The notes under the pieces: model-generated
Told to the model about the DNA's origin: nothing
Seen by the model: only the letters and a program-made list of their open reading frames with translations
Databases searched by the model: none
Translations under genes and position numbers: made by a program
NCBI GenBank assembly: GCA_021791795.1
Contig: JAJYVX010000003.1
Location: 1 to 55,752 of the forward strand
Origin: Actinomycetes bacterium
Lineage (GTDB): Bacteria; Actinomycetota; Acidimicrobiia; Acidimicrobiales; Bog-793
Length of the DNA stretch: 55,752 bases
Direction: 5' to 3'
In this document: positions 7,713 through 34,271 of the stretch, piece by piece
Position numbering within the stretch: the first letter of the stretch is position 1
Layout of the letters: the number at the start of each line of letters is the position of its first letter

Positions 7713-9137
7713 ATGCGGCGCCGTATGACAGACACCGCTCATCCCGGCGAGACGGGTTCGCCGCTTGCCCCGTTCGCCTCCGCTACGTGCATCGCCGCAG
7801 CCGTGCGCTCCGGCGAGGTGTCCGCCGCCGAGGTCGTGGCGGCGACGCTCGCCCGCATCGATGCCCTCGACGGAGCGCTCAACGCCTTCACGGTCGTGCT
7901 GGCAGAGCAGGCGCTCGAGAGAGCTCGGGGCCTCTCGGCCGAGGAGCTCTCCGCACCACTCGCCGGCGTGCCGGTCGCCGTGAAGGACCACGTCTGGATG
8001 GCCGGTGCCCCGGCCACGAACGGCTCGCGCGTGCTGAGGGACTTCGTGCCGCCGGAGGACAGCGGCGACATCGCCCGCCTGCGGGCGGCGGGAGCCGTCC
8101 TCGTCGGCAAGACGAACAACCCCGAGTTCTGCTACGTCGGGCACACACGCTCACCTGTCTACGGCACGACGAGGAACCCGTTCGACCTCGGGCGCACCCC
8201 CGGCGGTTCGAGCGGCGGCTCGGCGGCCGCGGTCTCTGCAGGGATGGTCCCGCTCGCCGTCGGGACCGACGGAGGGGGCTCGATCCGGGCTCCCTCCGCC
8301 TTCTGTGCGATCGTCGGGCACAAGCCGACGTTCGGGATCGTGCCGACACGGCCGGGCTTCGAGTGTTGGCCGACGTTGTCGGTCCACGGGCCGATGGGCC
8401 GGAGTGTGGAGGACGTCGCTCTCATGCTCGCCGTCATGGCCGGGCCGCACTCGGCGGACCCGGCCACCACGCCTGTCGACACCCGGGCTCTGGCGAGAGC
8501 GGCCGGATCGCGCGCGGATGTCCGGGGCCTCAGGATCTTCGTCAGCGAAGATCTCGGCCTTCTCGCACCCGATCCCGACGTGGGCGATCTCTTTGCAGAG
8601 GCCGTGGCCGTGCTCGAGGGGCTCGGCTGCGTGCTCGTCGACGCCCGGCTGCCGTCCATCGATCCGGTCGATCTCTGGTACCGCATCGCCGACGCCGAGA
8701 GCTACGGGTCTGAGGGCGGTTTCCTCACCGAAGCAGACCTGCTCACGGACTACAGCCTCGAAGTGCTCCGGCGGGGCGAAGCGATGTCCGCCGGCGACTA
8801 CCTCGAGGCGCAAGAGCTCCGCCGCTCGCTCGCCCGGGGCTGGGACGAGCTGTACGAGACGGTCGAGCTCGTGGTCCACCCCTCCGCTTCGGTCCCGCCG
8901 CTCCCACTCGAGGCTGCCGAAAACGGGGAGGACGAACGGACTTGGGGAAGCGACGCCGTCGCCAACCTCACGGGACAGCCGGCGATATCGCTCCCGTGCG
9001 GACTCACACCGCAAGGGCTTCCGGTCGGCATCCAGCTCCTCGGTCGCCGCTACGAGGACGCCAAGGTGCTGGCGGCGGCTCACGTCATCGCACAAGCTCT
9101 CCCGCGCCCGCTCCCTCCGCCTCCCTTCTGCCCATAG
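7713..9137 (+). CDS. Amidase (amidase-signature family)
   Basis: VAVKDH lysine motif and GGSSGGSAAAVSAG signature. 474 aa. An alternative ATG lies at 7725. Confidence 0.9.
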   Translation: MRRRMTDTAHPGETGSPLAPFASATCIAAAVRSGEVSAAEVVAATLARIDALDGALNAFTVVLAEQALERARGLSAEELSAPLAGVPVAVKDHVWMAGAPATNGSRVLRDFVPPEDSGDIARLRAAGAVLVGKTNNPEFCYVGHTRSPVYGTTRNPFDLGRTPGGSSGGSAAAVSAGMVPLAVGTDGGGSIRAPSAFCAIVGHKPTFGIVPTRPGFECWPTLSVHGPMGRSVEDVALMLAVMAGPHSADPATTPVDTRALARAAGSRADVRGLRIFVSEDLGLLAPDPDVGDLFAEAVAVLEGLGCVLVDARLPSIDPVDLWYRIADAESYGSEGGFLTEADLLTDYSLEVLRRGEAMSAGDYLEAQELRRSLARGWDELYETVELVVHPSASVPPLPLEAAENGEDERTWGSDAVANLTGQPAISLPCGLTPQGLPVGIQLLGRRYEDAKVLAAAHVIAQALPRPLPPPPFCP

Positions 9138-9179
9138 TCGGTTCCCTGCGACGCGCACACCCGAGGCGTAGTGTTGCGC

Positions 9180-9632
9180 ATGCTCGCCGAAGGCACGGTT
9201 GCCCCTCCGTTCACGCTTGTCGATCAACACGGAAGAGATGTCAGTCTCGACGACTACAACGGCCGCTCTCTCATCTTCTGGTGGTACCCGAAGGCGTCGA
9301 CTCCCGGCTGAACGACGCAGGGACTGGGCCTGCGTGACAGGTCCGAGAGCTTCGAGGCGGCGGACTGCGCCATCGTCGGCGCCTCCTTCGACACGGTCGA
9401 GGAGAACCGGGAGTTCGCCGAAGCACAGGGATTCGGTTACCCGCTCCTGTCGGATCCAGACAAATCCGTCGGCCGGAGCTACGAGGTCGTCGCCCCGGAG
9501 GATTCCGAGTGGGCCGACTACGCGATGCGCATCGCCTATCTGATCGGTCCCGACGGCAGGATCCAGAGGTCGTACAGGGTGAGCGACGTGGCAGGCTTTG
9601 CTGCGGCCGTGCTTGCCGACCTCGAAGCCTGA
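9180..9632 (+). CDS. bcp: Bcp/PrxQ-type peroxiredoxin with in-frame TGA (9309-9311) at the peroxidatic Cys position; candidate selenoprotein
   Basis: Manual translation gives MLAEGTVAPPFTLVDQHGRDVSLDDYNGRSLIFWWYPKASTPG-TGA-TTQGLGLRDRSESFEAADCAIVGASFDTVEENREFAEAQGFGYPLLSDPDKSVGRSYEVV...RIAYLIGPDGRIQRSY...LEA. The frame stays open for 107 codons after the TGA. The YPKA-TPG-[C]-T motif is the Bcp active site. Not in the ORF track because the TGA splits it. Confidence 0.75.
9312..9344 (+). promoter_or_regulatory. Candidate bacterial SECIS stem-loop directly downstream of the in-frame UGA
   Basis: Perfect 7-bp stem ACGCAGG (9315-9321) / CCTGCGT (9329-9335) with loop GACTGGG. A mutually exclusive alternative pairs GGACUG (9321-9326) with CAGGUCC (9338-9344), with one bulged G and an 11-nt loop beginning GG, 16 nt after the UGA. 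Confidence 0.5.
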
Positions 9633-9687
9633 GCAGGCCGGCGGGGCCTTGGCGTCCGTGAACTGGCGGTCCTCCTAGACTCTGCCG

Positions 9688-10419
9688 ATGACCAAGCGGA
9701 CCCGCATCGCGAACGGCGCCTCAGCCACCAAGGCCGTTGCCGCGAACGGCGGCGCCGCCACCGGCGCAGGTGCACCGCACGGGCGGCTAAGTCCTGGAGA
9801 CGGCTCTTTCGCGAGGGACGGCAACAACCGGACAGACATGATCGACGCCGGCGTCGGATGGGTCATTGCCCGCCGAGTGCGCGAATACCGCGCCCAACTC
9901 GGGCTCACCATCGACCAGCTCTCCGAGCGTGCGGGCATCTCGAAGGGAATGCTCTCGAAGATCGAGAACGCTCGGGCCTCGCCGAGCCTCGGCACCCTCG
10001 TAAGGCTGGCATCGGCCATGTCCGTGCCCCTCACAGCACTGTTCCGGGGTCTCGAGGAGGAGCACGACGCGCTCTTCGTTCGCGCCGGCCAGGGAACCGA
10101 GATCGTCCGGAAGGGCACGAGGGTGGGGCACCGTTACCAGATGCTCGGCGAGATGCGGGGACCCAACAAGGTCGTAGAACCGATGCTCGTGACCCTCAAC
10201 GAGCACAGCGAGGTCTTCCCGCTCTTCCAGCACCCCGGCATCGAGTTCCTCTACATGTTGAAAGGTGTCGTGGAGTACGGGCACGGCGCCGGACGGTACG
10301 TGCTCCGTCCGGGGGACGCCCTCCAGTTCTCCGGCGACGTCGCGCACGGACCGACGAAGCTGGTCAAGCTGCCGATCCAGTTCCTCTCCGTCATCGCCTA
10401 CGGCAGCCCGCGCAGCTGA
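9688..10419 (+). CDS. XRE-family transcriptional regulator with C-terminal cupin domain
   Basis: HTH_3 segment LGLTIDQLSERAGISKGMLSKIENARASPSLGTLVRLASAM, and a C-terminal cupin (GIEFLYMLKGVVEYGHG...GDALQF). The N-terminal 50 aa is low complexity. An alternative ATG lies at 9838. Confidence 0.85.
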   Translation: MTKRTRIANGASATKAVAANGGAATGAGAPHGRLSPGDGSFARDGNNRTDMIDAGVGWVIARRVREYRAQLGLTIDQLSERAGISKGMLSKIENARASPSLGTLVRLASAMSVPLTALFRGLEEEHDALFVRAGQGTEIVRKGTRVGHRYQMLGEMRGPNKVVEPMLVTLNEHSEVFPLFQHPGIEFLYMLKGVVEYGHGAGRYVLRPGDALQFSGDVAHGPTKLVKLPIQFLSVIAYGSPRS

Positions 10420-10470
10420 GGTTGTCCCGGCTCCTCAGAAGTCCAGCCTGCCGGCTGTGTTCACCGTGAG

Positions 10471-10499
10471 TGGACCTTGTTTCCTTGTCATGCTAGTTT
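10471..10499 (+). promoter_or_regulatory. Candidate sigma-70-type promoter for the soxBDAG-like operon
   Basis: TGGACC (10471-10476), 17-nt spacer, TAGTTT (10494-10499, fits TANNNT), in a locally AT-richer patch about 30 nt upstream of the GTG start. Confidence 0.25.
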
Positions 10500-10533
10500 C
10501 GCCGGACAGAGGCGAGCACGAGGGAGGCCAGTG

Positions 10534-11811
10534 GTGAGGCAACGGGGAGCGACGCGGCGCCGTCCGCAGCGATACTCCGCTTTCGGCCTCCTGCGCCACG
10601 GTCTGCGGCACGACGACTGGCCGCGGGTCTGGCGAACGTCCGAGCTCGACCGCCGATACGACGTCGTGATAGTCGGCGCCGGCGTTCACGGGCTTGCAGC
10701 CGCGTACTACCTCGCTTCGAAGCATGGGATCTCGAAAGTGGCGGTCCTCGACAAGGGCTACGTGGGCGGCGGCGGCTCGGGACGCAACACGGCGATCCTT
10801 CGCTCGAACTACCTCACGCCCGAAGGCGTGCGCTTCTACGAGCGCTCGATGGAGCTCTACCGGAACCTCGCCGTCGACCTCAACTTCAACGTCATGTTCG
10901 CACAGCGCGGCCACCTGACCCTCGCACACACGGACGCCTCGCTCCGCACGATGGTCTGGCGCGCCGAGGTGAACAAGCTGCAGGGGGTGAATTCGGAAGT
11001 CGTCTCACCGGAGGAGGTGAAGCGACTCGTCCCCTTCATGGACGTCTCGAACCATGCCCGCTACCCGATCCTCGGAGCGCTCTACCACCCACCCGGCGGC
11101 ATCATCCGCCACGACGCCGTCAACTGGGGCTACGCGCGCGCTGCCAACGCGCTCGGCGTGGAGATCCATCAGAACACCGAGGTGACCGGGATCACCGTCC
11201 GCGACGGACGCGTCCAGGGCGTCACGACGCCGAGAGGCGAGATCGCCGCCCCGATCGTCCTCAACTGCACGGCCGGCTGGGCCTCGCTCGTCGCCGGCAT
11301 GGCAGGCGTGAAGCTGCCGATCATCACCCACCCGCTCCAAGCCGCCGTGACCGAGCCGGTGAAGGTGTTCCTCGGAGCCGTCGTCGTATCGGGGAGCCTG
11401 CACGTCTACGTGAGCCAGACGGACCGCGGGGAGCTCGTCTTCGGCGCTAGCACCGATCCGTACGCCTCGTACTCGATGCGCGGCTCGCTGGAATTCACCG
11501 AGGAGCTGGCATCGCACGTGCTCGAGCTGATGCCGTCCATAGGGAGGATGAGAGTGCTGCGCCAGTGGGCGGGGCTCTGCGACATGACGCCTGACTTCTC
11601 GCCCGTGATGGGGACCACGCCCGTCGAGGGCTTTCTCGTCGACGTCGGCTGGGGCACCTACGGCTTCAAGGCAGGTCCTGCCGCCGGCGAGGCGATGGCG
11701 GAGCTGGTTGCGACGGGAAGGACGCCCGAGCTGATAAGCGCGTTCGGCCTTGCCCGCTTCGAGCAGGGCCGGCTCGTCGGCGAGCGCGGCGCCGCGTCGG
11801 TAGGGCATTGA
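10534..11811 (+). CDS. soxB: Heterotetrameric sarcosine oxidase beta-subunit homologue / N-methylglutamate dehydrogenase subunit
   Basis: PQRYSAFGLLRHGLRHDDW N-terminus, FAD fold DVVIVGAGVHGLAAAYYL. AGGGAGG RBS (10521-10527) precedes in-frame GTGs at 10531 and 10534. The TTG at 10477 in the ORF track is probably too far upstream. Confidence 0.9.
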   Translation: MRQRGATRRRPQRYSAFGLLRHGLRHDDWPRVWRTSELDRRYDVVIVGAGVHGLAAAYYLASKHGISKVAVLDKGYVGGGGSGRNTAILRSNYLTPEGVRFYERSMELYRNLAVDLNFNVMFAQRGHLTLAHTDASLRTMVWRAEVNKLQGVNSEVVSPEEVKRLVPFMDVSNHARYPILGALYHPPGGIIRHDAVNWGYARAANALGVEIHQNTEVTGITVRDGRVQGVTTPRGEIAAPIVLNCTAGWASLVAGMAGVKLPIITHPLQAAVTEPVKVFLGAVVVSGSLHVYVSQTDRGELVFGASTDPYASYSMRGSLEFTEELASHVLELMPSIGRMRVLRQWAGLCDMTPDFSPVMGTTPVEGFLVDVGWGTYGFKAGPAAGEAMAELVATGRTPELISAFGLARFEQGRLVGERGAASVGH

Positions 11812-11818
11812 CCCGGCC

Positions 11819-12103
11819 ATGATCCTCCTCCCCTGCCCCCACTGCGGAAAGAGGAACTCGAACGAGTTCTCCTACCTCGGCGAGAGCGCGCCGCGACCGA
11901 CCGAGACGGGCGATGCGAAGCTGTGGCGTGCGTACCTTTACACCAAGGAGAACCCGGCCGGTTGGACCAGGGAGACCTGGCTCCACTCCGGCGGGTGCGG
12001 TAAGGCCTTCCTGGCCGAGCGCCACAGCGTGACGAACGAGGTGCGCGCGACATGGCTCCCCGGCAGGAAGGAGCCGGACACGACGACGGAGGCCGGCTCA
12101 TGA
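11819..12103 (+). CDS. soxD: Sarcosine oxidase delta-subunit homologue
   Basis: MILLPCPHCGKRNSNEFSYLGE zinc-ribbon N-terminus characteristic of SoxD. 94 aa. Confidence 0.9.
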   Translation: MILLPCPHCGKRNSNEFSYLGESAPRPTETGDAKLWRAYLYTKENPAGWTRETWLHSGGCGKAFLAERHSVTNEVRATWLPGRKEPDTTTEAGS

Positions 12104-14913
12104 CGCGCTCCCCACGACGACTCGATCCACGGCCGGGCGAGGTCATCGACAGGAACCGCAGGCTCGGCTTCAGCTGGAACGGGAAGCGCTACGAGGGCTA
12201 CGAGGGCGACACCATCGCGTCGGCCCTAGCGGCCGCGGGCGAGCGGATCTTCTCGCGCAGCTTCAAGTACCACCGGCCCCGCGGGATCCTCGCGGCGAGC
12301 CTTCACGACCCCAACCTCCTCGTCCAGGTCGGTGACGAGCCGAACGTCCGAGCCGGGTATCGCAAGCTCGAGGACGGCATGGCGGTGTCGGCGCAGAACG
12401 CGTGGCCGTCTCTCAACTACGACGTCGGGTCGCTCAACCAGACCGTCGCGCGCTTCCTCGGGGCGGGTTTCTACTACAAGACCTTCATGAAACCTCAGCG
12501 CCTCTGGCCCGCGTACGAACACGTGCTGCAGCGCTTCGCCGCAGGTGGGAAGGTCGCGCAAGGAGCCGAGAGGCGGGACTGCGACAAGCGCTACGCGCAT
12601 GCCGACGTGCTCGTGGCCGGCGGCGGGCCCGCGGGCATGTCCGCCGCGATCGCCGCGGCAGACGAAGGCGCCCGCGTCATGCTCGTCGAGGAGGAACCCG
12701 GCCTCGGGGGCCACCTCCGCTGGGGGACCCCGGACGACCTCGCCCGTCTCGCCGAGCTCCGCACCGAAGTGGCGGCCAGGCCGTCGATCGAGGTGCTCAC
12801 CTATTCGCTCGTCGCCGGGCGATACGACGACAACTGGATCTCAGTGCTGCAGCGGGGACTGCCGCAGGTGACCGAGAGGCTCGTGAAGGTGCGGGCGAAG
12901 GTGCTCGTTGTGGCCGTGGGGCTCATCGAGCGTCCCTACGTCTTCGAAGGCAACGACCTCCCCGGCGTCATGCTCAGCACCGCCGTGCGGCGACTCGTGA
13001 ACCTCTACGCCGTGAAACCCGGCGACCGCGCAGTCGTCTTCCTCGCGAACGAGGAGGGTGAGGCCGCCGCCGAGGACCTGCGACAGGCGGGCGTCGAAGT
13101 CCTCCGTGTCGTCGACGCCCGCAGAGGAGGCGGCCTGCTCAGAGCGCGCGGGCGCCGTGGTCTCGACTCGGTCGAGCTGCAGGACGGCTCGAGCGTCGCC
13201 TGCGACCTCCTCGTCACCGCCGTCGGTTGGACGGCGCCGATGCTGCTGCTCAACGCCTCGGGCGACCGGCCGACCTACGACGAGGAAGCCGCGCGCTTCG
13301 TGCCCGGTGGCGGCCTGCCCGACAACGTGCTCGCCACCGGGGGAATCCTCGGCGACGGGCCCGTCGGGCTGCTCGTCGACCACGGCCGCGCGACGGGTGC
13401 CCTCGCGGCGCGGCGTGCGCTCGGTGGTGACGCGGCGTCTTCCTCCTCACCCGAGGCGGTGCCGGCGCTGACTGCTGCACCGCATCCGGCGCTCTTTCGC
13501 TCGGGAACGCGCGGTTTCGTCGACTACTCCGAGGACGTGTCGGCTAAGGACCTCATGGCTGCCGCCCGGGAAGGCTACGACTCGGTCGAGCTGTTGAAGC
13601 GCTACACCACCGCAACGATGGGCCCGGCGCAGGGGAAGTTGGAGACGATCAACACCGTCGCAGTGCTGGCGGAGGCGACCGGCCGCTCGATCGGCGAGAC
13701 GGGGACGACCGTCTGGCGCCCGCCGCACTCTCCGATAAGCCTCGGAGCTCTTGCCGGGCGCAACTACGAACCGGTGCGGTACTCGCCGATGCAGCCCTGG
13801 CACGAGGCCAAGGGGGCGGTTCCGATAGTGGCCGGCCAGTGGATCCGGCCCGAGCACTATGGCGATCCGGCGGCCGAGGTGCTGAACGTCCGCAAGAACG
13901 TCGGGATCATCGACGTCACCCCGCTCGGCAAGCTCGACCTGCGCGGGCCGGATGTGTCGCGACTCCTCAACTTCCTCTATGTGAACAAGTGGTCCAAGCT
14001 CGAGGTCGGAGCGGTTCGCTACGGAGTGATGTGCGGCGAGGACGGCGTCGTTGCCGACGACGGCGTGACCGGCCGGCTGGGTCCCGAGCGCTACTTCATG
14101 TCGACAACGTCATCAGGCGCCGCCGCCATCCACGAGTGGATCGAGCGGTGGCTGCAGACCTCCTTTCGCGAGTGGCAGGTCCACGTCACGTCCATGACGA
14201 GCGCCTTCGCGAGCATCAACGTGGCCGGGCCACGCTCGCGCGAGTTGCTCGCCCGCCTGGTCGCGGATGTGGACCTCTCCGCTGCTGCGTTCCCCTACAT
14301 GAACGTGCGCCAAGGGAGCATCGCCGGCGTTCCCGGTTGCCTCATGTGGAGGATCGGCTTCACCGGCGAGCTGAGCTACGAGTTGCACGTACCGTCCGGC
14401 TACGGCCTTTCGGTCTGGGAGGCGCTCCTCGAGAGCGGGCGCGACCTCGGTGCCGCGCCCTTCGGGGTCGAGGCGCAGCGGATCATGCGGCTCGAGAAGG
14501 GGCACTTCATCGTCGGGCAGGACACGGACGGTCTCACCCAGGCGTTCACTGCCGGCCTCGATTGGCTGGTCAAGCTCGACAAGGAAGACTTCGCCGGCAA
14601 GGCGGAGCTCGTCTTCGAGTCCGAGCGTCCTCGGGAGTCGAGGCTCGTCGGGCTGCAGCCAGTGGACCCGACCGTGGTGCCGCCCGAGGCCAGCCAGATC
14701 GTGAGCGGCTCGAGCACGATCGAGGGACGGATCACCTCGAGCAGGTTCTCTCCGACCCTCAACCGCGCCATCTGCCTCGGCATCGTCTCGCAGCGCTGCG
14801 CGAGTCCGGGCACGGTCGTCACCGTCGTCCACCCGGACGGCACACGCACGCCGACCCGGGTGATGGAGCACCATGCCCACTTCGACCCGGAAGGGACCCG
14901 CCTCCGTGCCTGA
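12100..14913 (+). CDS. soxA: Sarcosine oxidase alpha-subunit homologue (NAD/FAD fold plus folate-binding GcvT-like C-terminus)
   Basis: ATG at 12100 overlaps the soxD stop (ATGA). GFSWNGKRYEGYEGDTIASALAA N-terminus, ADVLVAGGGPAGMSAAIAAA, and a GcvT-like C-terminal domain. Confidence 0.9.
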   Translation: MTRSPRRLDPRPGEVIDRNRRLGFSWNGKRYEGYEGDTIASALAAAGERIFSRSFKYHRPRGILAASLHDPNLLVQVGDEPNVRAGYRKLEDGMAVSAQNAWPSLNYDVGSLNQTVARFLGAGFYYKTFMKPQRLWPAYEHVLQRFAAGGKVAQGAERRDCDKRYAHADVLVAGGGPAGMSAAIAAADEGARVMLVEEEPGLGGHLRWGTPDDLARLAELRTEVAARPSIEVLTYSLVAGRYDDNWISVLQRGLPQVTERLVKVRAKVLVVAVGLIERPYVFEGNDLPGVMLSTAVRRLVNLYAVKPGDRAVVFLANEEGEAAAEDLRQAGVEVLRVVDARRGGGLLRARGRRGLDSVELQDGSSVACDLLVTAVGWTAPMLLLNASGDRPTYDEEAARFVPGGGLPDNVLATGGILGDGPVGLLVDHGRATGALAARRALGGDAASSSSPEAVPALTAAPHPALFRSGTRGFVDYSEDVSAKDLMAAAREGYDSVELLKRYTTATMGPAQGKLETINTVAVLAEATGRSIGETGTTVWRPPHSPISLGALAGRNYEPVRYSPMQPWHEAKGAVPIVAGQWIRPEHYGDPAAEVLNVRKNVGIIDVTPLGKLDLRGPDVSRLLNFLYVNKWSKLEVGAVRYGVMCGEDGVVADDGVTGRLGPERYFMSTTSSGAAAIHEWIERWLQTSFREWQVHVTSMTSAFASINVAGPRSRELLARLVADVDLSAAAFPYMNVRQGSIAGVPGCLMWRIGFTGELSYELHVPSGYGLSVWEALLESGRDLGAAPFGVEAQRIMRLEKGHFIVGQDTDGLTQAFTAGLDWLVKLDKEDFAGKAELVFESERPRESRLVGLQPVDPTVVPPEASQIVSGSSTIEGRITSSRFSPTLNRAICLGIVSQRCASPGTVVTVVHPDGTRTPTRVMEHHAHFDPEGTRLRA

Positions 14914-14929
14914 TCCGATCGCCACGGCG

Positions 14930-15538
14930 ATGCTCGCACGCTCACCCGTGCGCCAGTCGAAACCTCTCCGCCAGGAGGCCGGCTGGGAGGTGTCGTCCGC
15001 CGACACGGGGGCTGCTCTGGAGCTGGCGGACCTGACGCCGATCACCAAGGTTCTCGTACGCGCCTCATCTTCCGCAGTCGGCTCGTCGTTCTCGGACTTC
15101 GGTCGCGCGAGGAGGGACGAAGCGGGTCACCTCGTGGTGGGGGCGCGTCCCGACGAGTGGATCGTCTTCGGGAAGGCCGGGAGTGCCGCCGCAACGATCT
15201 CCCAGATAGAGGAACGTCTCGCCGGCGCAGAAGGGCTCGTGACCCTGGTCGACGTCACGCACCGGGACGTCGTGTTCCTCCTCAGCGGGACCGACGCCCG
15301 CGGGGTGCTGGAAAAGATCTGTGCCATCGACCTCTCGGACAGGACGAGCCCGGACGGCACGGCCTTCCGAAGCAGGGTGGCGGGCGTGAGCTGCCTGGTG
15401 GTGCGCGAGGACCGGGACGGCCGGCCCGCTTACCTCATCGACGCCGACCGGTCCTACGGTCAATACCTCTTCGACGTGCTGGTCGACGCCGGAGCGGAGT
15501 TCTCTGTGGAGGTGGCGGGCTACACAGAGGTCTTCTGA
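14930..15538 (+). CDS. soxG: Sarcosine oxidase gamma-subunit homologue
   Basis: Position after soxA, about 200 aa, MLARSPV... N-terminus. The ORF-track start at 14873 would overlap soxA by 41 nt, so the start is uncertain. Confidence 0.75.
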   Translation: MLARSPVRQSKPLRQEAGWEVSSADTGAALELADLTPITKVLVRASSSAVGSSFSDFGRARRDEAGHLVVGARPDEWIVFGKAGSAAATISQIEERLAGAEGLVTLVDVTHRDVVFLLSGTDARGVLEKICAIDLSDRTSPDGTAFRSRVAGVSCLVVREDRDGRPAYLIDADRSYGQYLFDVLVDAGAEFSVEVAGYTEVF

Positions 15539-15556
15539 GACCGTTAGCTCAGAAGA
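15531..15556. terminator. Shared hairpin spanning both stop codons of convergent soxG and the GS-like gene
   Basis: TCTTCTGAG (15531-15539) and CTCAGAAGA (15548-15556) are perfect reverse complements around the 8-nt loop ACCGTTAG. The soxG TGA (15536-15538) and the minus-strand TGA (15549-15551) lie inside the two arms. Confidence 0.4.
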
Positions 15557-16907
15557 GGGTGAGATACCGGTCGACCTCCCAGGGCGTGACATCGGAATGC
15601 CACGCCTGGAATTCCGCTCGCTTCACCTTGGCGTAGTAGTCGATGTAGTCACCCTGGCGCGTCCTGCCGAGACCGTCACGGAGCACGTCGTCCTTCACCA
15701 GTGCGTCCACGGCGTGGAGCAGGGTCGGAGGGAGGGTCTTGATGCCCCGGCCGTTCACTTCTTCGACGGACAGCTCGTACAGGTTGTCCATGTTGGGCTC
15801 ACCCGGGTCGATCTTGCGATCCACCCCGTCGAGGCCTGCGGCCAGTTGCACCGCGAGTGCCAGGTAGGGGTTCGCCGCCCCATCACAGGCCCTGTTCTCC
15901 ACCCTTCCACCGTCTGGCACGCGCAGCATCTGAGTCCGGTTGTTCCCTCCGTAGGTCGCGTACGCCGGAGCCCAGGTGGCGCCCGAGGTGGGCGCGCCTA
16001 CCCCCATGCGCTTGTACGAGTTCACCGTCGGGCATGTCACAGCTGTGAGCGCGCTGGAGTGCTCGATCAATCCTCCGACGAAGTAATACCCCATCTCCGA
16101 GAGGCCGAGGCCGCGCGGGTCGTCCTCGTCGGCGAAGAGCTCGGCGCCGGTCTTCGCGTCCCACAGGCTCGAGTGGAAGTGCAGCCCGTTGCCCGTGAGG
16201 TTCGCGAACGGTTTCGGCATGAAGGTCGCGGCGAGCCCGGCGCGGTGCGCGACCATGTGGACCATGTACCGGAAGAAGATCATCCTGTCCGCGCTCGTGA
16301 GGGCTTCCGCGAACTTGAAGTTCTGCTCGAATTGGCCGTTCGCGTCCTCGTGGTCGTTCGCGTAGTTCTCCCAGCCGAGTTGGTTCAGGTAGCGGGAGAT
16401 CGTCGTGAGATGGTCATACATGCGGCTCAAGCCTTTGGCGTCGTAACACGGAGCTTCGAAGCGGTCCAGCTCGTCCGCAACCGCGATCCCGCCACTCTCG
16501 GTCCGGCGCACGAGGAAGTACTCGGCCTCGCACCCGACGTTGAACACGAGGCCGCGCTCCTCGACCCGTTCGAGCATGCGCTTCAGGATCACTCGCGGCG
16601 AGTAGGGCCAGGGCTCACCCTCGACGTGTATGTCGCACTGGACGACTGCGAGCCCGGGTTGCCAGGGCGCAACCGTGTACGAAGAGGCGTCGGGTACCGC
16701 GATGAGGTCGGGATCGGCCGGCGTCTGGCCCATCGGGCCGGCGGCGAAGCCGGCGAAGCCCGACCCGCCCCCGAAAAGGACGTCGAGCGCCTCGACCGGG
16801 ACGAGCTTGGCGCACGGCTTGCCGTGCATGTCGACGAACATCGCGAAGACGAACTCAACACCGTCCGCCTCGGCCTGAGCCTTCACCTGGTTGCCGGCCT
16901 CGAGCAC
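15549..16907 (-). CDS. gmaS: Glutamine synthetase-family protein, probable gamma-glutamylmethylamide synthetase
   Basis: GS beta-grasp and catalytic domains (VEFVFAMFVDMHGKPCAKLVP..., NGLHFHSSLW, RVPDGGRVENR). The 715-aa ORF is an artefactual upstream extension that runs through the next gene. In-frame GTG starts lie at 16907 (GGGGA RBS) or 16943 (AAGGAAAGG RBS). Confidence 0.85.
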   Translation of the reverse strand: MLEAGNQVKAQAEADGVEFVFAMFVDMHGKPCAKLVPVEALDVLFGGGSGFAGFAAGPMGQTPADPDLIAVPDASSYTVAPWQPGLAVVQCDIHVEGEPWPYSPRVILKRMLERVEERGLVFNVGCEAEYFLVRRTESGGIAVADELDRFEAPCYDAKGLSRMYDHLTTISRYLNQLGWENYANDHEDANGQFEQNFKFAEALTSADRMIFFRYMVHMVAHRAGLAATFMPKPFANLTGNGLHFHSSLWDAKTGAELFADEDDPRGLGLSEMGYYFVGGLIEHSSALTAVTCPTVNSYKRMGVGAPTSGATWAPAYATYGGNNRTQMLRVPDGGRVENRACDGAANPYLALAVQLAAGLDGVDRKIDPGEPNMDNLYELSVEEVNGRGIKTLPPTLLHAVDALVKDDVLRDGLGRTRQGDYIDYYAKVKRAEFQAWHSDVTPWEVDRYLTLF

Positions 16908-17008
16908 GACATCCCCTTTCGATCGAGCTCCGTGACCGGTCACCCGGCGAGCTGCCTTTCCTTGCTTGTTCTCGGTGGACGACCACAAGCCGGCCAGAGG
17001 AGTGCCGC

Positions 17009-18397
17009 CTAGGCCTTCTCCCAGCCGGGGATCCAGTTGGTGCCGGCGAGCGGCACCCTTGCCATGGCCGCCGCCTCCAACGTGAGGCCGACGAGGTCGT
17101 CCGGCTCGAGGTTGTGCACGTCCGACTTCCCGCACGCTCGGGCGAGCGCCGTGAGCTCCATGGTGAGGCCCTTCAGGTAGTTCGTCATCCAGCGCGAACC
17201 GAGCTCCGGATCGAGGCGCGCCTCGAGGTCCGGGTCCTGTGTCGTCACACCGACGGGGCACATCCCCGTGTGGCAGTGATGGCAGTAGCCAGGCTCGGTG
17301 CCGAGCGCGAGGTAGTCGCCGACGGCATCCTGCTCGACACCGTCCTCCACATAGGTCGGCCGGTTGCAGCCGAGGGCCACGAGCGAGGCGACGCCGACAG
17401 AGACTGCGTCTGCGCCGAGCGCGAGCGCTTTGGCGACGTCCGCCCCCGAGCGTATTCCTCCGGACACTATGAGCTGCACCTTGTCCTTCATGCCGATGTC
17501 CCGCAAGGCGTCGGAGGCGATTCGCACGGCGGGCAGGGTCGGTATGCCCGCGTGCTCGATGAACACCGTCTGGGTCGCTCCCGTTCCTCCCTGCATGCCG
17601 TCGATCACGACGACGTCGGCGCCGGCCGCGACCGCGAGCTTGACGTCGTGCTCGACGCGGGTCGCGCCGAACTTTACGTAGATGGGCTTCTCCCAACTGG
17701 TCGCCTCGCGCAGCTCCCCGATCTTGATCCTCAGGTCGTCGGGACCGGTCCAGTCGGGATGCCGTGACGCCGAGCGCTGGTCGATGCCCGCCGGGAGCGT
17801 CCGCATCGCGGCCACGCGCTCGCTCACCTTCTGCCCGAGGAGCATGCCGCCACCGCCTGGCTTCGCACCCTGTCCGATGACCACCTCTATGGCGTCAGCC
17901 GCCTTCAGGTGATCGGGGTTGAAGCCGTAGCGCGACGGCAGGCATTGGTACACGAGCAGGCGCGACGCTCGGCGCTCCTCGTCGGTCATTCCGCCGTCAC
18001 CTGTCGTCGTGGACGTGCCGGTGTTCGTGGCAGCTCGGCCCAGGGCCTCCTTCGCGCTTGCTGAGAGCGCGCCGAAGCTCATTCCGGCGATGGTTATGGG
18101 GATGTCGAGCTCAAGCGGGCGCTTGGCGTAGCGCGTACCGAGCACGGTCTTCGTATCGCAGCGCTCCCTGTATCCCTCGAGCGGGTAGCGAGTCAGCGAG
18201 GCCGTCAGGAACACGAGGTCGTCGAAGCTCGGCAACACCCGCTTCGCACCCCAACCCCGGATCTCGTAGCGGCCGACGTCGGCCATCTCGTGTATCTGGC
18301 CGATCACCTCACGCGAGAACGTGTGGCTTGGCACGGCACCGGTCCACCGCACGCGGTTGGTGCCCGGGCCCCCGGGCGTATCTGCGTCGTTGCTCAT
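17009..18397 (-). CDS. mgsC: FMN-binding glutamate synthase-family protein (GlxD-like; N-methylglutamate synthase subunit C candidate)
   Basis: GltS FMN-domain motifs (GQGAKPGGGGML, LIVSGGIRSGADVAKALALGADAV). 462 aa. Confidence 0.85.
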   Translation of the reverse strand: MSNDADTPGGPGTNRVRWTGAVPSHTFSREVIGQIHEMADVGRYEIRGWGAKRVLPSFDDLVFLTASLTRYPLEGYRERCDTKTVLGTRYAKRPLELDIPITIAGMSFGALSASAKEALGRAATNTGTSTTTGDGGMTDEERRASRLLVYQCLPSRYGFNPDHLKAADAIEVVIGQGAKPGGGGMLLGQKVSERVAAMRTLPAGIDQRSASRHPDWTGPDDLRIKIGELREATSWEKPIYVKFGATRVEHDVKLAVAAGADVVVIDGMQGGTGATQTVFIEHAGIPTLPAVRIASDALRDIGMKDKVQLIVSGGIRSGADVAKALALGADAVSVGVASLVALGCNRPTYVEDGVEQDAVGDYLALGTEPGYCHHCHTGMCPVGVTTQDPDLEARLDPELGSRWMTNYLKGLTMELTALARACGKSDVHNLEPDDLVGLTLEAAAMARVPLAGTNWIPGWEKA

Positions 18398-18398
18398 G

Positions 18399-19091
18399 TC
18401 AGTACTTCTGGTCCTTCAGGGCATCGAAGTTGTAGAGCTGCTTGGCGGAGGCCACCCTCTTCACGTCCTCCGCCGACACGTGGTCGAAGCGAGCAGCCTG
18501 CAGGATGCGTCGCACCTCCTCCACGTCGTCTGAGGAGATTTCCTCGAGTCTCGCGTCGGAACCGAGCGAGGCGATCTTCCCGGCCACGTAGATCACGGCC
18601 TCGTAGAGGCTGTCGCCGAGAGCCGACCCGGCATCGCCGCCGATCAGGATCGTTCCGGCCTGTGCCATGAAACCGCTCATGTGGCCGACGTCGCCCGCGA
18701 CGGCGAGCGTGGAGCCCTTGAGCGAGATGCCGGCACGCGACGACGCGTCTCCCTCGACGACGACGATCCCGCCGTGAGCTGAGGCCGCGGCGCACTCCGA
18801 AGCGTTGCCACGGACCCGCCCCGACCCGCTCATCAGGTTCTCCCCCACTGACCAACCGACGAACCCGTCCACGACGACGTCCGGGCCGTCACAGAGACCC
18901 CCGATGAAGTAGCCGGCGTTGCCCTCGATCGAGATGGAGAGCTTGTTCGAGAGGCCCACCGAGAGGTTGTGGCGTCCGCGGGGCTCCGTTATGCGAACCT
19001 GCGCGCCGTCCGGCAAACCCCGCAGCGCAGCGTTGACCTCGCTCACAGAGAGCTCGCCGCAGCTCAGCTCGACCACGGTGGCCGTCACCAT
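18399..19091 (-). CDS. mgsB: GXGXG-motif glutamate synthase domain protein (GlxC-like; N-methylglutamate synthase subunit B candidate)
   Basis: Repeated GXGXG beta-helix motifs (GNAGYFIGG, GDVGHMSGF). 230 aa. Its stop lies 1 nt upstream of the next gene's start. Confidence 0.85.
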   Translation of the reverse strand: MVTATVVELSCGELSVSEVNAALRGLPDGAQVRITEPRGRHNLSVGLSNKLSISIEGNAGYFIGGLCDGPDVVVDGFVGWSVGENLMSGSGRVRGNASECAAASAHGGIVVVEGDASSRAGISLKGSTLAVAGDVGHMSGFMAQAGTILIGGDAGSALGDSLYEAVIYVAGKIASLGSDARLEEISSDDVEEVRRILQAARFDHVSAEDVKRVASAKQLYNFDALKDQKY

Positions 19092-19972
19092 GTGAAGATC
19101 TCCTCGGGCTGCGGCTCGAACACGCGTGCCTCCTCTATCCCGGGGAGATCGGTGAGAGCGACGTACTCAGAGGCCACCGCGACGTACTCAGGAGTCTCGG
19201 CCACGACGAGTGGCTTGCAGGCCGAGGCGTCGCGGACGACGGCGATCGAGTCCTCTGCGGCGACGAGGAGGGTGAAGAAGCCGTCGAACGTCCGCATGAC
19301 CCCGTAGAGAGCGTCTTTCAGGTCGCCACCGCCAGCCATCTCGCGCGCTATGTAGCGCGCGGCCACCTCGGAGTCGTTGTCCGTGTCGCACTCGACGCCC
19401 TCCGCGGCGAGGTCCCGCCGGATGCTCGCGTAGTTGGAGAAGCTTCCGTTGTGCACGAGCGAGATGTCGCAGCCGCCCGCGAACGGGTGCGAATGCTCGG
19501 TGGTCACAGCCGACTCGGTCGCCATCCGCGTGTGGCCTATCGCCGCGTATCCGGACCTGTTCGCGATTCCGTAGGCGCCGCAGACCTCGAGAGGCGACCC
19601 GACGTCCTTGTAGAGCTCGAGTGCCCGCCCGTAGCCGAAGAGCCGGACGCCTGGCGCGACGTTGCCGAGGGCGTGCTTCATCTCGTCGTTGCTCGCCGTG
19701 GTGACGCAGACCGCCTGGCGGCCCCTCCGCTCGAGGCGCACCTCTGTCCCGAGCTCCTCGGCGAGGGGCGGCTCCAGTGAGTCCCAGTCGAGCTCCGCCG
19801 GTGCGCTGAGCGAGTACTTGAGCTCTCCCGGCTCGAGGTCACGGTCGTAGATGGCGATACCGGCCGAGTCCGGTCCTCTCGAGGTGAGGTGGTCGAGCAT
19901 CGGCACCATGAGCTTGCCCAGCAGCGGTTGCAGGTCCTCGTTCTTCAGCAGAAGGCCAGCGATTCCGCACAT
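19085..19972 (-). CDS. mgsA: Class II (Ntn) glutamine amidotransferase (GlxB-like; N-methylglutamate synthase subunit A candidate)
   Basis: N-terminal MCGIAG with catalytic Cys2. AGGAGG RBS upstream. Overlaps the downstream gene by 7 nt. Confidence 0.85.
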   Translation of the reverse strand: MCGIAGLLLKNEDLQPLLGKLMVPMLDHLTSRGPDSAGIAIYDRDLEPGELKYSLSAPAELDWDSLEPPLAEELGTEVRLERRGRQAVCVTTASNDEMKHALGNVAPGVRLFGYGRALELYKDVGSPLEVCGAYGIANRSGYAAIGHTRMATESAVTTEHSHPFAGGCDISLVHNGSFSNYASIRRDLAAEGVECDTDNDSEVAARYIAREMAGGGDLKDALYGVMRTFDGFFTLLVAAEDSIAVVRDASACKPLVVAETPEYVAVASEYVALTDLPGIEEARVFEPQPEEIFTW

Positions 19973-29275: not shown

Positions 29276-30325
29276 GTGAGGCAGACGACCGCGGCTGACG
29301 GGCTGAGCGAGACGGGCGATGAGCCCGCCGCACAAGAGGTGTCCGATACCGATCTGGTCGAAGAGAACTGGCAGATCCAGTTCTCGAATGACACATACGC
29401 GTACGGGTGCATCCCTGTGCCGGTCGTCGCGGTTGGGCCCACGGGCGGGCTTCATGCCCTCGTCGTCGGGGGCAACCACGGGGACGAGTTCGAGGGGCAG
29501 ATCATCGCCCGTCGGCTTCTCTTCGAGCTCCGCAGCCGTCGTCTGCGGGGCAGGGTGACGCTGCTGCCTTCCCTCAATTTCCCAGCGGTCCTGGCGCAGA
29601 GCCGCACGTCCCCGGTAGACGGACAGAACCTCAACCGTTCGTTCCCGGGCGCTGCCGGCGCAGGGCCCACCTCAGCCATTGCATGGACTGTCAGCGAGAA
29701 GCTCCTCCCCCAGTGTGACTTCGCCATTGATCTCCATTCGGGCGGACTGGCTTCGCGCTGGCTGCCGAGCGGCTTCGTCCGGCTGACGTCAGCGGACTCG
29801 GTTCAGCAGCGGGAGGACAAGCTGACCGCGGCACGCCTGCTCGGCCTGTCGGACGTGCTCGTCGTGGGGGAAGGCAGCGACGACCGCTCGTTGTCGGCGC
29901 AGTGCGACCGCGCCGGCGTCCTCTCCGTCGCGGCAGAGCTGGGTGGGGGCGCCACCGTCGAGAGCGCCCTCGTCGAGCAGGTGCTCTGGGGCGTGCTTCG
30001 CCTCCTCGGGCACTGGGGCCTCCTCGAGGATGACGGGACGGCTCACGAGGACGTGCAGGCTCCACCCCGCCTGCTCGCACTGCGTGGCGGCGACCAGGTG
30101 GTGATGTCGCACTGGCACGGGATGCTCGAACCGATCTGCGAGGTTGGCGAGGAGGTAGACGCGGGTCAAGCCCTCGGGCGCCTCTACTCGCTCGAGCGGC
30201 CCGCCGCCGAGCCGACGGTGGTCCGAAGCACGTCACCCGGTGTAGTGGCCATCCGCCGGCTGCCGCCCGTCGTCGCCCCCGGGGACTACCTCTTCACAGT
30301 CGCTCCGGCCTGGAGGCCAGAGTGA
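29276..30325 (+). CDS. Succinylglutamate desuccinylase/aspartoacylase-family zinc deacylase (DoeB-like)
   Basis: ALVVGGNHGDEFEGQIIARRL zinc-binding motif, DLHSGG. About 340 aa. The start is uncertain because the AGGAGG at 29271-29276 abuts the GTG. Confidence 0.75.
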   Translation: MRQTTAADGLSETGDEPAAQEVSDTDLVEENWQIQFSNDTYAYGCIPVPVVAVGPTGGLHALVVGGNHGDEFEGQIIARRLLFELRSRRLRGRVTLLPSLNFPAVLAQSRTSPVDGQNLNRSFPGAAGAGPTSAIAWTVSEKLLPQCDFAIDLHSGGLASRWLPSGFVRLTSADSVQQREDKLTAARLLGLSDVLVVGEGSDDRSLSAQCDRAGVLSVAAELGGGATVESALVEQVLWGVLRLLGHWGLLEDDGTAHEDVQAPPRLLALRGGDQVVMSHWHGMLEPICEVGEEVDAGQALGRLYSLERPAAEPTVVRSTSPGVVAIRRLPPVVAPGDYLFTVAPAWRPE

Positions 30326-30347
30326 GAGTCGCGAGGGGTCCGGTGAG

Positions 30348-31535
30348 ATGCAGATGACACCGAGAGTTCTCATAGTCGGTGGTGGCATCATGGGTGCGTC
30401 GACTGCGTTCTTCCTGGCGGAGGCCGGACTCGGCGACTCCACTGTCGTGCTCGAGCGGGGAACGGTCGGCAACGGCTTCAGCTCGATGTCGACCGGGATA
30501 GTCCGTTGCCACTACGGCCATCCCGCCCTCGTCTCCATGGCACTGCGCAGCAGGCGCTTCTTCGAACAGTCATGCGATCTCCTCGGGGCGGACATCGGCT
30601 TCAGGCCCATCGGCTACGCCTTCGGCGCGGGAGCCGTCGACGAGGACGCTCTGCGGCGGAACGTGGAGTTGCAGCAGTCGCTCGGCGCCGAGGTGGACAT
30701 CGTCCCAGTCGAGGAGATCGCCGCATTCTGGCCGGGAATCGAGTCCTCGGGCATCAGTCTCTTCGCCTTCGAGGCGGGTGGCGGATACGGCGACGGGTAC
30801 CTCACAACCCAGGGCATGGCCGCCGCGGCGCGCTCGAGAGGTGTCGACATCCGCCAGCGCCAAGCCGTCCGGCGGCTCGTCGTCAGCTCCGACGGCGGGG
30901 AGGTGCAGGGCGTGCAGCTCGCATCGGGAGAGACGCTGTGGGCAGACATCGTCGTGGTGGCAGCCGGGCCGTGGTCGGTCTCGCTGTGCGACGAGATCGG
31001 TGTCGAGGTGCCGATCTCGTGCCATCGGGAGCCCAAGCTCGTGCTGCACTGGCCGGCGGCGGTCGATTCGAGGCCGGTACTGGCGGACAGGCTCCGCGCC
31101 CAGTACTTCAGGCCCGACTCACGGGACACGGTCATCTACGGCAGCACGCAGACCGACCATGTCGACCTCGTCGACCCCGATCGTTTCGACAGCTTCGCGG
31201 ACGACGACTTCGTCGACAACGCGATCACGGCCATCGATCAGCTAGTGCACAGAGACGACATCGAAATAGTGCGCAGCTACGCCGGCTGCTACGACATCAC
31301 CCCGGACCTCTACCCGATCATCGGCCGCTGCGATGTCGAGAGGCTCATCCTCTGCATGGGGTTCAGCGGACACGGCTTCAAGCTCTCGCCGGCCGTGGGG
31401 CGCCTGGTCGCCGACCTGATCGTGAACGGCGAGAGCTCCGATCCTCACGTTCCGACGGACTTCTTCGCGCTGCGGCGATTCGGCGAGGGCCGCTCCATCC
31501 GCAGCCTGAACCCCTACTCGGGGTCGAGGTACTAG
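30348..31535 (+). CDS. FAD-dependent oxidoreductase (DAO family, monomeric sarcosine oxidase-like)
   Basis: VLIVGGGIMGASTAFFLA dinucleotide fold and a GFSGHGFKLSP C-terminal motif. 395 aa. Confidence 0.85.
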   Translation: MQMTPRVLIVGGGIMGASTAFFLAEAGLGDSTVVLERGTVGNGFSSMSTGIVRCHYGHPALVSMALRSRRFFEQSCDLLGADIGFRPIGYAFGAGAVDEDALRRNVELQQSLGAEVDIVPVEEIAAFWPGIESSGISLFAFEAGGGYGDGYLTTQGMAAAARSRGVDIRQRQAVRRLVVSSDGGEVQGVQLASGETLWADIVVVAAGPWSVSLCDEIGVEVPISCHREPKLVLHWPAAVDSRPVLADRLRAQYFRPDSRDTVIYGSTQTDHVDLVDPDRFDSFADDDFVDNAITAIDQLVHRDDIEIVRSYAGCYDITPDLYPIIGRCDVERLILCMGFSGHGFKLSPAVGRLVADLIVNGESSDPHVPTDFFALRRFGEGRSIRSLNPYSGSRY

Positions 31536-31614
31536 CCGTGGCCAGGCCCGCAACCACCCCCGACCTTCGCAATCGCTCGATCGAGACCAGGGAGGGCGCC
31601 GCGAAGCGTTCCGG

Positions 31615-32817
31615 GTGTCGGCGGTCGTGACCCTCGGTGAAGCAGCCGCGCACCCGGTCGGACGGCGCCTCCTCGCCGAGGTGAGCGTCAGTACCGTGCT
31701 CGGCGCACTGCCCGGATTTCTCTTTGCTGCCTGCTACGTCTCCGAACGCCAGAGCCTCGGGTCGAACGGCGGGCTCCCCCTCGCACTCACGATCTCGGGC
31801 ACAGCTCTCGGCGGAATCATCGGCGGCATCCTCGGCGGCAACCTCGTGAACCGCCGTGCAGGCTCGAAGGCTCTCCGCTTTGCCGTCTGCGCGATCGGGA
31901 CCGCTCTTCTCGCGGCCGGAGCCAGCAGAGACTGGGCCGAGCTGGGGCTGCTCGTCGCTGTCACGGGTGTGGCTAGCGGTGTCGCTCGGGCGGTCGGTAC
32001 CGCGGTGCTCGCCACAGCGGCAGGGGGCAGGTCACTCCCGACCTACATGAGCGTGCGACAGGCGTTCGTACCTGCCTCCCTCGTGATCGCCGGCCTTGGT
32101 GCCGCGGCGAGCGCCGAGCTCATCGGATGGCGCTGGACCTACGTCGGGGTCGGATTCGTCGCTTTCGCCGCCGGATCATGCATCCGGACCAGCCTGCGCA
32201 CGATGCCGGTGAGCGAGAAGAGCGGGCCGCACTCACGGCTTCCGATGGCCGTACTTGCGACGGCCGCTCTCGGACTCGCTCTCGGCCTGCTGGCCGAAGA
32301 GGTGCTCAGCACCTACTGGGTCGTCTCCGCCGTCCACGACGGCGTGAGCGTGGCGAAGGCCGGTGTGCTCATCTCTCTCGGCGGCCTGCTCGCGGCCACC
32401 GCGAGAGTGTTCTCGGGGGTAGGCGCCTCTCGCGCCGGATCGCGCGAGTTCACCATCTCTGGTGCTTCGCTCGTGCTCGGGAGCACGGGCCTGCTCTTCA
32501 TGGCCGTCGGTACGCCGGCGGCGGCAGTCGTCGCCCTCGTCGTCGGCTTCGGCATCGGATGGTCGTGGAACGGAGTCGCGGCGGCAGGCCTCGTTCGCCT
32601 GTGCCGCGAGCGGCTCGGGCTCGCCGCTTCGGTGGAGCAGGTCAGCCGTCAAGCCGGCAACCTGGTGGCGCCGCTCTTCTTCATCTGGCTGCGGAACGGC
32701 TTCGGGCAGCGGTCGGCCTGGCTCTTCAGCGCGGTCGGCTGCGCCGTAGCAGGAGGGCTGCTCATCCTAGCTGGGCGCACCGGCCGATTGCGGCCGGTGC
32801 TAGCGGTCGGGGACTAG
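31615..32817 (+). CDS. MFS-type transporter
   Basis: About 12 hydrophobic segments across 400 aa with short basic loops. The call rests on composition only. Confidence 0.65.
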   Translation: MSAVVTLGEAAAHPVGRRLLAEVSVSTVLGALPGFLFAACYVSERQSLGSNGGLPLALTISGTALGGIIGGILGGNLVNRRAGSKALRFAVCAIGTALLAAGASRDWAELGLLVAVTGVASGVARAVGTAVLATAAGGRSLPTYMSVRQAFVPASLVIAGLGAAASAELIGWRWTYVGVGFVAFAAGSCIRTSLRTMPVSEKSGPHSRLPMAVLATAALGLALGLLAEEVLSTYWVVSAVHDGVSVAKAGVLISLGGLLAATARVFSGVGASRAGSREFTISGASLVLGSTGLLFMAVGTPAAAVVALVVGFGIGWSWNGVAAAGLVRLCRERLGLAASVEQVSRQAGNLVAPLFFIWLRNGFGQRSAWLFSAVGCAVAGGLLILAGRTGRLRPVLAVGD

Positions 32818-32824
32818 AGGTCGC

Positions 32825-34033: not shown

Positions 34034-34271
34034 CCGTGGCCAATGCCAGGGACACGGCCAATGCGTGATAGCTGCGCCGGAGCTCTTCGAGCTGGACGAC
34101 GACGGCTTGTCACGGGCGCTGCGGAACGAGGTGACCGGCGAAGACATCGGGGCGGCAAGGTCTGCAGAGCTCGTCTGCCCCGTCTCTGCCATCCGGTTCA
34201 CCCCTGAACCGCCCCGGACGAGCGGAGTGCCGAACGAAGGACCTCTCACAGGACGAGGAGGAGAGCGATGA
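34014..34271 (+). CDS. Small [3Fe-4S]-type ferredoxin
   Basis: CQGHGQC...CP (CxxHxxC...CP) cluster motif. 85 aa. AGGGGAGGAG RBS. Overlaps the upstream gene by 20 nt. Confidence 0.8.
   Translation: MARLEVDRGQCQGHGQCVIAAPELFELDDDGLSRALRNEVTGEDIGAARSAELVCPVSAIRFTPEPPRTSGVPNEGPLTGRGGER

Follow-up and report, generated by a model that had tools for sequence, protein, structure and literature searches.

The 55,752-nt contig JAJYVX010000003.1 of an Acidimicrobiales bacterium, which as a whole is called the window here and supplies the numbering of all coordinates, carries on its forward strand, at 9180-9632, a gene for a peroxiredoxin of the bacterioferritin comigratory protein (BCP)/PrxQ type that is interrupted by one in-frame TGA. 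From comparison with its relatives, we predict with high confidence that this gene encodes a functional peroxiredoxin in which the UGA is decoded as selenocysteine (Sec; U in single-letter code), and most of the small probability that remains goes to read-through of the codon with an amino acid other than Sec. The selenoprotein interpretation had been put forward in a preliminary description of the window, and it is upheld by a Sec/cysteine (Cys) pair with a strongly predominant UGA form among related species, by selection on both sides of the codon, by a covarying downstream hairpin consistent with the consensus of the bacterial selenocysteine insertion sequence (bSECIS), and by the lack of a conserved resolving Cys.

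An in-frame UGA at the peroxidatic position

Translation of 9180-9632 reads MLAEG...WWYPKASTPG*TTQGLGLRD...ADLEA*, in which the TGA at 9309-9311 is the one internal stop. It is preceded by 43 sense codons and followed by 106 before the terminal TGA, and the ATG at 9180 agrees with the ML..G start of homologous proteins. In a mechanical list of open reading frames (ORFs), the locus appears as a 46-aa ORF terminating at the internal TGA, and the following 320 bases are without any ORF. The region 3′ of the internal TGA has a coding-type base composition, the G + C content being 0.83 at third codon positions versus 0.49 at second positions (contig 67% GC). Furthermore, the Cys-substituted protein matched the Pfam AhpC-TSA profile PF00578 with E = 3.6e-30 and 104.9 bits (gathering cut-off 26) over residues 5-130, corresponding to profile positions 2-123 of 124. 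Thus, the 150-codon frame with its single TGA, the profile match, and the composition confirm the earlier proposal that the gap after the upstream amidase gene is coding. The frame beyond the TGA is intact, as had been described, but the figure of 107 further codons given for it includes the terminal stop. The TGA was also correctly placed on the active-site Cys, since in an alignment with 47 homologues it falls on their invariant peroxidatic Cys.

A scan of one genome per species (GTDB representatives) yielded 521 relatives, and the counts are based on the best 80, almost all of which are metagenome-assembled genomes (MAGs) of Acidimicrobiia and which include Acidimicrobiaceae, Ilumatobacteraceae, Microthrix and others. 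Whether close relatives carry TGA or TGC/TGT had been suggested as a check on the preliminary description; the catalytic codon was TGA in 78 of these 80 genomes and TGC in two. The TGA-form orthologues share 52-66% protein identity across species genomes, and the frame 3′ of the TGA stays open for 106-120 codons in virtually all loci. The ratio of nonsynonymous to synonymous differences (pN/pS), calculated from 600 random pairs, was 0.39 over 40 codons 5′ of the UGA and 0.47 over 57 codons 3′ of it, with pS near saturation at ~0.6. Because pN/pS is below 0.5 on either side of the UGA, both halves of the gene are under purifying selection.

A first homologue search had returned full-length Cys forms (P0001-P0006, 49-61% identity) together with short matches of 91-109 aa limited to the C-terminal two thirds of the protein, and two matches had Trp at the catalytic position. 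On the contigs of the short matches, a 43-44-aa AhpC/TSA stub was located upstream in the same frame each time, with TGA at the catalytic codon between the two parts. Outside the 80 species genomes, five metagenome homologues had TGA at this codon as well. UGA is not reassigned to an amino acid here, because TGA is the terminator of 31 of the 43 genes in the window and, among these peroxiredoxin genes themselves, of 56 out of 87. As separate observations, the public calls for L008:125-586 (P0005) and for P0020 render the catalytic TGA as Trp (TPGWT); the codon at the Trp-form locus that was checked is TGA, and the contig was apparently called with a genetic code in which TGA means Trp. TGA-form orthologues also occur in MAGs labelled as members of lineages outside Acidimicrobiia, namely Burkholderiales (L062) and Mycobacteriales (L028, L039, and L044), which could mean that the selenoprotein gene was transferred horizontally or that the MAGs were mis-binned or mislabelled.

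These comparisons leave little room for explanations in which the TGA is an accident. If a nonsense mutation had struck an ordinary Bcp gene, the locus would be a pseudogene, and gene callers do split it and annotate the 43-aa stub alone. However, the comparative data refute a pseudogene, given that species with 52-66% protein identity share TGA at the same codon, that no further stops or frameshifts are present, that both sides of the UGA are constrained, and that the downstream RNA structure covaries; the divergence among the genomes excludes one contaminating sequence as its source. The earlier argument that the gene is intact and was not hit by a random nonsense mutation therefore holds. 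A sequencing or assembly error hiding a true TGC or TGT is the least probable explanation of all. Apart from the prior that MAG contigs contain errors, nothing favors it, whereas the window DNA including the TGA is 100% identical in ENA ERZ27237285, NCBI MAG GCA_027351605.1, and Logan SRR13203224, so that four assemblies agree, and TGA is found in dozens of independent MAGs, including the long-read complete chromosomes OY970315.1 and OZ220474.1; the complete chromosome OZ241886.1 has a TGA-form orthologue too. We consider it just as improbable as a pseudogene that the 43-aa and ~100-aa polypeptides are translated separately and then assemble into a split enzyme. Alternative starts a few or ~20 codons past the TGA have been called in P0007, P0030, and P0039, but these starts differ in position and codon between species, no conserved ribosome-binding site is apparent, and the assembled product would be without a catalytic residue.

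A conserved hairpin downstream of the UGA

A candidate SECIS hairpin lies inside the coding sequence, over the codons for L-G-L-R-D-R-S. Its conserved core, GGGCCUG-CGUGA-CAGGUCC (9326-9344), forms a stem of 7-8 bp that starts 14 nt after the UGA and brings the loop to 21 nt after it, and the 9325-9345 element has an energy of -12.1 kcal/mol. The bSECIS consensus comprises a loop of 3-9 nt, a stem of 4-16 bp, a G within the first two loop positions, a UGA-loop distance of 16-37 nt, and a minimum free energy of -7.5 kcal/mol or lower (PMC13188914 Fig. 2 legend). The window hairpin agrees with it in every respect, its 5-nt loop containing a G followed by a U.

We aligned the 48 nt starting from the TGA for 77 distinct sequences. 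CGUGA was invariant or nearly so at columns 25-29, and the complementary arms on its two sides varied by species, the pairs GGGCCUG/CAGGUCC, GGCCCUG/CAGGGCC, GGCGCUG/CAGCGCC, GGCGUUG/CAACGCC, and GGGGUUC/GAACCCC being seen. Pairing of columns 18-24 with 30-36, which is the window's register, gave 81% paired cells, compared with 32-55% when the arms were slid by 1-3 columns, and 43 cells had changes on both sides. When the sequences were folded singly, 74 of the 77 formed a stem of at least 6 bp (usually 7) around the CGUGA loop. The stems occur in three registers: a perfect one, one in which a C bulges out of the 3′ arm, and one with a 2-nt shift that gives a 7-nt loop. Furthermore, 75 of the 77 sequences use CGT for the loop Arg, compared with a share of only 11% for CGT among the other Arg codons of the same genes, and this preference is a constraint at a synonymous site.

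The hairpin is broken in four of five Cys-form relatives (L054, L083, L094, and L095). Several individual loci deserve mention in their own right. At L093:868-915, which encodes P0001 with TGC at the catalytic codon (61% identical), the full hairpin GAGCCUG-CGUGA-CAGGUUC is retained, apparently as a fossil left by a recent conversion from Sec to Cys. L054:3130-3177 and L083:3130-3177, both from Ilumatobacteraceae, are the only two Cys forms among the best 80 genomes; they have lost the hairpin and gained a second Cys ten residues downstream (TPGCTIEGQGLRDC), which may act as a resolving Cys that arose when the enzymes went over to sulphur chemistry. The low-GC relative L008 has the stem GGAUUC/GAAUCC, fully compensated relative to that of the window.

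Another structure, a perfect 7-bp hairpin of 9315-9321 with 9329-9335, is present in the window, where the 62-nt stretch adopts it as its fold of minimum energy. Although 72.5% of its cells are paired across the alignment, it was rejected as the functional element because one of its pairs is broken in 64 of the 77 sequences; its apparent covariation arises because the conserved Gln/Glu-Gly codons pair with the same CCUG arm. The preliminary description had reported a SECIS-like structure 3′ of the UGA. A hairpin does exist there, but the conserved element is the overlapping one at 9326-9344 and not the perfect 7-bp hairpin.

Several results weigh against the decoding of this UGA as Sec. The 62-nt context of the window sequence folds preferentially as the competing 7-bp hairpin, and the conserved hairpin is only modestly more stable than shuffled sequences (z = -1.86, 8/200). 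RNAalifold gave no consensus structure for the 77 sequences, which is attributable to the presence of the stem in three registers. No Rfam match for SECIS or tRNA-Sec was obtained with either the gathering cut-off or a permissive E-value scan; because bacterial SECIS elements are poorly modelled in Rfam, this outcome is expected and uninformative. Finally, selA, selB, selD, and tRNA-Sec were not found on the 55.7-kb contig or in 588 kb of related sequence, a result that is uninformative for the rest of the genome. In particular, ARAGORN found no tRNA-Sec in the window, which is without any tRNA, or in 60 related loci, SelA, SelB, and SelD were not found in the Pfam annotation of 40 window ORFs, and tblastn with the E. 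coli SelA, SelB, and SelD proteins against the 588 kb gave nothing. A scan of the window for other selenoprotein genes by in-frame TGA and coding signal gave just same-frame neighbours and antisense shadows.

The Sec trait itself is documented in the lineage. Ilumatobacter coccineus, I. nonamiensis, and Ca. Microthrix parvicella are SelD+ SelA+ SelB+ and have 15, 10, and 7 selenoproteins, respectively (Peng et al. 2016, PMC5029168 Tables S1, S2), and selA, selB, selC, and selD are present in all 84 complete genomes of Actinomarina, a member of the same class (2026 preprint, bioRxiv 10.64898/2026.04.03.716425). The trait is not universal in Acidimicrobiia, because Acidimicrobium ferrooxidans is without it (PMC5029168).

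The principal competitor to Sec decoding, which we nonetheless judge to be improbable, is recoding or read-through of the UGA as another amino acid, with the hairpin stimulating near-cognate decoding as Trp, Cys, or Arg. Hairpins located downstream of a stop codon are in general able to promote its read-through, and the Sec machinery was not found on the contig searched. However, the UGA sits precisely at the redox-active Cys, which is the signature of a Sec/Cys pair, and Trp or Arg at this position would abolish catalysis, although selection still maintains the entire fold together with the catalytic Thr and Arg. In addition, the hairpin spacing and the G-U in the loop fit the SelB-type bSECIS consensus, and relatives from the same families have SelA, SelB, and SelD together with 7-15 selenoproteins (PMC5029168). 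Decoding as Sec thus remains the preferred explanation.

Active site, proposed catalytic cycle, and known relatives

The best NCBIfam models for the window protein are Bcp and PrxQ, and its scores are under the equivalog cut-off of both (NF006960, 98.1 versus 140 bits; NF053650, 84.4 versus 260); the Sec-peroxiredoxin is a relative within the BCP/PrxQ subfamily and not an equivalog of the curated enzymes. By sequence, the closest solved structures are those of Xanthomonas campestris BCP/PrxQ (E ~1e-23), and the top PDB matches are all named "bacterioferritin comigratory protein." We also used the AlphaFold model of the Cys homologue P0002 (59% identical to the window protein), which has a pLDDT of 97.2. 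Its best PDB matches in Foldseek were BCP/PrxQ structures (TM 0.85-0.91), followed by 1-Cys AhpE. The catalytic residues P37, T41, position 44, and R117 are invariant or nearly so in three alignments and match the active site of X. campestris PrxQ.

Neither of the canonical resolving positions is occupied by Cys in the window protein. Position +5, a Cys in 24 of 47 wider homologues, is Leu49, as had been pointed out in the preliminary description, and the site in helix α3 that is Cys84 in X. campestris PrxQ is Ala80. The sole Cys of the protein, Cys63, was considered as a resolving residue and rejected: no more than 48 of 86 homologues have it, Ala being the alternative residue, and in the P0002 model it lies at the start of a β-strand after helix α2. 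Moreover, 31 of 81 Sec forms are without any Cys. The clade of Sec-containing PrxQ proteins (Sec-PrxQ) is of the 1-Cys type and has no conserved resolving Cys, and the empty resolving positions and the Cys-free forms bear out the earlier statement that any mechanism would be single-Sec.

In the mechanism that we propose, Sec-tRNA(Sec) would read the UGA at 9309-9311 during translation, having been delivered by SelB, which the mRNA hairpin located 14 nt 3′ of the codon would position. In the mature enzyme, the conserved Thr41 and Arg117 would activate the Sec44 selenolate, which would attack the peroxide and be converted to a selenenic acid. An external thiol, which could be a low-molecular-weight compound or a thioredoxin-like protein, would then most likely reduce the oxidised Sec44 directly; direct external reduction is suggested because neither resolving-Cys position is filled and many orthologues are Cys-free. 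Judging from these sequence features, the enzyme most likely runs a one-Sec (1-Cys-type) cycle.

Among the established families of bacterial selenoproteins is that of the Sec-containing peroxiredoxins, "Prx" (PF00578, TxxU). It has been known since 2001, was experimentally verified in Eubacterium acidaminophilum (PrxU, Sohling et al. 2001), and is represented by 253 members in the Global Ocean Sampling metagenome and in 78 sequenced organisms (PMC13188914, PMC2398784, PMC5029168). With its TxxU motif (T41-P-G-U44), the window gene belongs to this known kind and is less novel than the preliminary description implied. COG1225 is the Bcp group, and a COG1225 selenoprotein in the literature may therefore be of the same clade. 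It is the "Thioredoxin family protein (COG1225)" that Peng et al. list in four organisms (PMC5029168).

The window gene shares with the Sec-Prx family and PrxU the PF00578 domain, the T-x-x-U motif with Sec in place of the peroxidatic Cys, an intragenic SECIS just 3′ of the UGA, and abundant Cys forms. In contrast to PrxU, the window protein belongs to the BCP/PrxQ structural subfamily and scores 30 bits against a cut-off of 270 for NF040737; it also comes from aerobic, high-GC Acidimicrobiia, whereas Sec-Prx was first described in anaerobes. None of the curated NCBIfam models for Sec-Prx or other selenoproteins matches the window protein, and the public annotation is truncated because no such model captures the gene. 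It consists of a 43-aa N-terminal stub alone at 9171-9311, with the JGI/IMG name "peroxiredoxin Q/BCP," and in the relatives L009 and L010 of the contig the C-terminal 106 codons are uncalled.

Like the Cys-type BCP/PrxQ enzymes (X. campestris PrxQ, PDB 3GKK and 5IIZ; E. coli Bcp), the window protein has the YPKxxTPGCT-type active-site loop and the catalytic Arg, but it has Sec for Cys in that loop and no resolving Cys at either +5 in helix α2 (as in E. coli Bcp) or Cys84 in α3 (as in X. campestris). The actinobacterial 1-Cys peroxiredoxins (Mycobacterium tuberculosis AhpE, 1XXU; BcpB, 5EPF) are similar in having a single redox-active chalcogen and, judging from the P0002 model, to which they are close structural matches, a small, monomer-sized peroxiredoxin fold. 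Although they use Cys where the window enzyme would use Sec, by analogy they are likely to be a model for its reduction by an external thiol. As for the RNA element, it resembles the SECIS of E. coli fdhF and fdnG and the bSECISearch consensus in being a hairpin immediately 3′ of the UGA with G-U in a small apical loop and a 21-nt spacing. It differs from the E. coli elements in that the stem measures just 7-8 bp, a conserved lower stem is lacking, no bulged U was detected, and the CGUGA loop sequence is specific to the Sec-PrxQ clade.

Genomic neighbourhood and significance

The features of the locus are collected in Table 1. The peroxiredoxin gene is flanked by an amidase gene and a gene for a helix-turn-helix (HTH)-cupin regulator. 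Because a search of 9000-9800 gave neither promoter-like nor terminator-like sites, it is possible that the peroxiredoxin is co-transcribed with the amidase gene (7713-9137).

Table 1. Features of the Sec-peroxiredoxin locus in window coordinates
Feature	Position	Strand	Basis and remarks
Predicted Sec-containing BCP/PrxQ-type peroxiredoxin coding sequence, complete	9180-9632	+	150 sense codons including Sec44, plus terminal TGA at 9630-9632
UGA codon at the peroxidatic position (Sec44), motif P37-K-A-S-T41-P-G-U44-T	9309-9311	+	Translation; alignment with Cys homologues
Codon of the conserved active-site Arg117 of the peroxiredoxin fold	9528-9530	+	Invariant in three homologue alignments; matched in alignment to the catalytic Arg in X. 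campestris PrxQ
Candidate bacterial SECIS hairpin inside the coding sequence	9325-9345	+	Folding, covariation, bSECIS consensus
Hairpin 5′ arm (U)GGGCCUG	9325/9326-9332	+	Per-sequence folding
Hairpin apical loop CGUGA	9333-9337	+	Per-sequence folding
Hairpin 3′ arm CAGGUCC(G)	9338-9344/9345	+	Per-sequence folding
Possible Shine-Dalgarno sequence GAGG, 13 nt before the ATG	9163-9166	+	Sequence inspection; within the 42-nt gap after the amidase stop codon (9135-9137)

In other genomes, the neighbourhood is different. A gene for a VIT1/CCC1-family membrane protein (PF01988, iron/manganese transporter), which is absent from the window, is the direct neighbour of Sec-PrxQ in 31 of the 80 genomes (for example, L002:10326-11147, L014:3509-4261, and L073:3531-4280), and both Cys-form loci are included among them. 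This adjacency suggests that PrxQ and VIT1/CCC1 form a conserved peroxide-plus-iron defence pair. At L086:3130-4275 (Acidimicrobiales MAG), the frame continues for 381 codons past the UGA into VIT1-like sequence, which is either a Prx-VIT1 fusion or the result of a lost stop or an assembly error.

The surrounding parts of the window (9688-19972 and 29276-38981) are rich in genes for the breakdown of small nitrogen compounds. They include the HTH-cupin regulator, the four subunits of sarcosine oxidase (soxBDAG), glutamine-synthetase-like, glutamate-synthase-like, and glutamine amidotransferase (GATase) proteins, a creatininase, two amidases, a nitrilase-family hydrolase, and hydantoinase A/B; the contig also encodes a xanthine-dehydrogenase-type enzyme and transporters. 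Sarcosine oxidase and flavoenzymes of the D-amino-acid-oxidase type generate H2O2, and H2O2 from such enzymes could explain the presence of a peroxidase gene at this site.

The finding leaves the knowledge of Sec decoding and peroxiredoxin function unchanged and introduces no new mechanism. What it reveals is a widespread actinobacterial version of Sec-peroxiredoxin that is missed by gene callers: in public annotation, Sec-PrxQ is invisible, truncated, split in two, or mistranslated with Trp. With a dedicated profile and the SECIS alignment of the 77 sequences, the gene would be recovered from hundreds of Acidimicrobiia genomes.

As a tentative proposal, to be taken as one joint claim, Acidimicrobiia from soil, freshwater, marine, and activated-sludge habitats may have in Sec-PrxQ a near-universal, lineage-typical selenoprotein that runs an obligate one-Sec cycle without a resolving thiol. 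According to the same proposal, its pairing with VIT1/CCC1 would constitute a defence module against peroxide and iron (Fenton) chemistry, the CGUGA loop would be the SelB recognition motif of the class, and the enzyme could help keep the Sec trait in these aerobes. The family offers a clean, deeply sampled Sec/Cys peroxiredoxin pair, with 78 Sec versus 2 Cys forms among the closest species, and the fossil SECIS in one Cys form is useful for asking why and when aerobic bacteria keep Sec.

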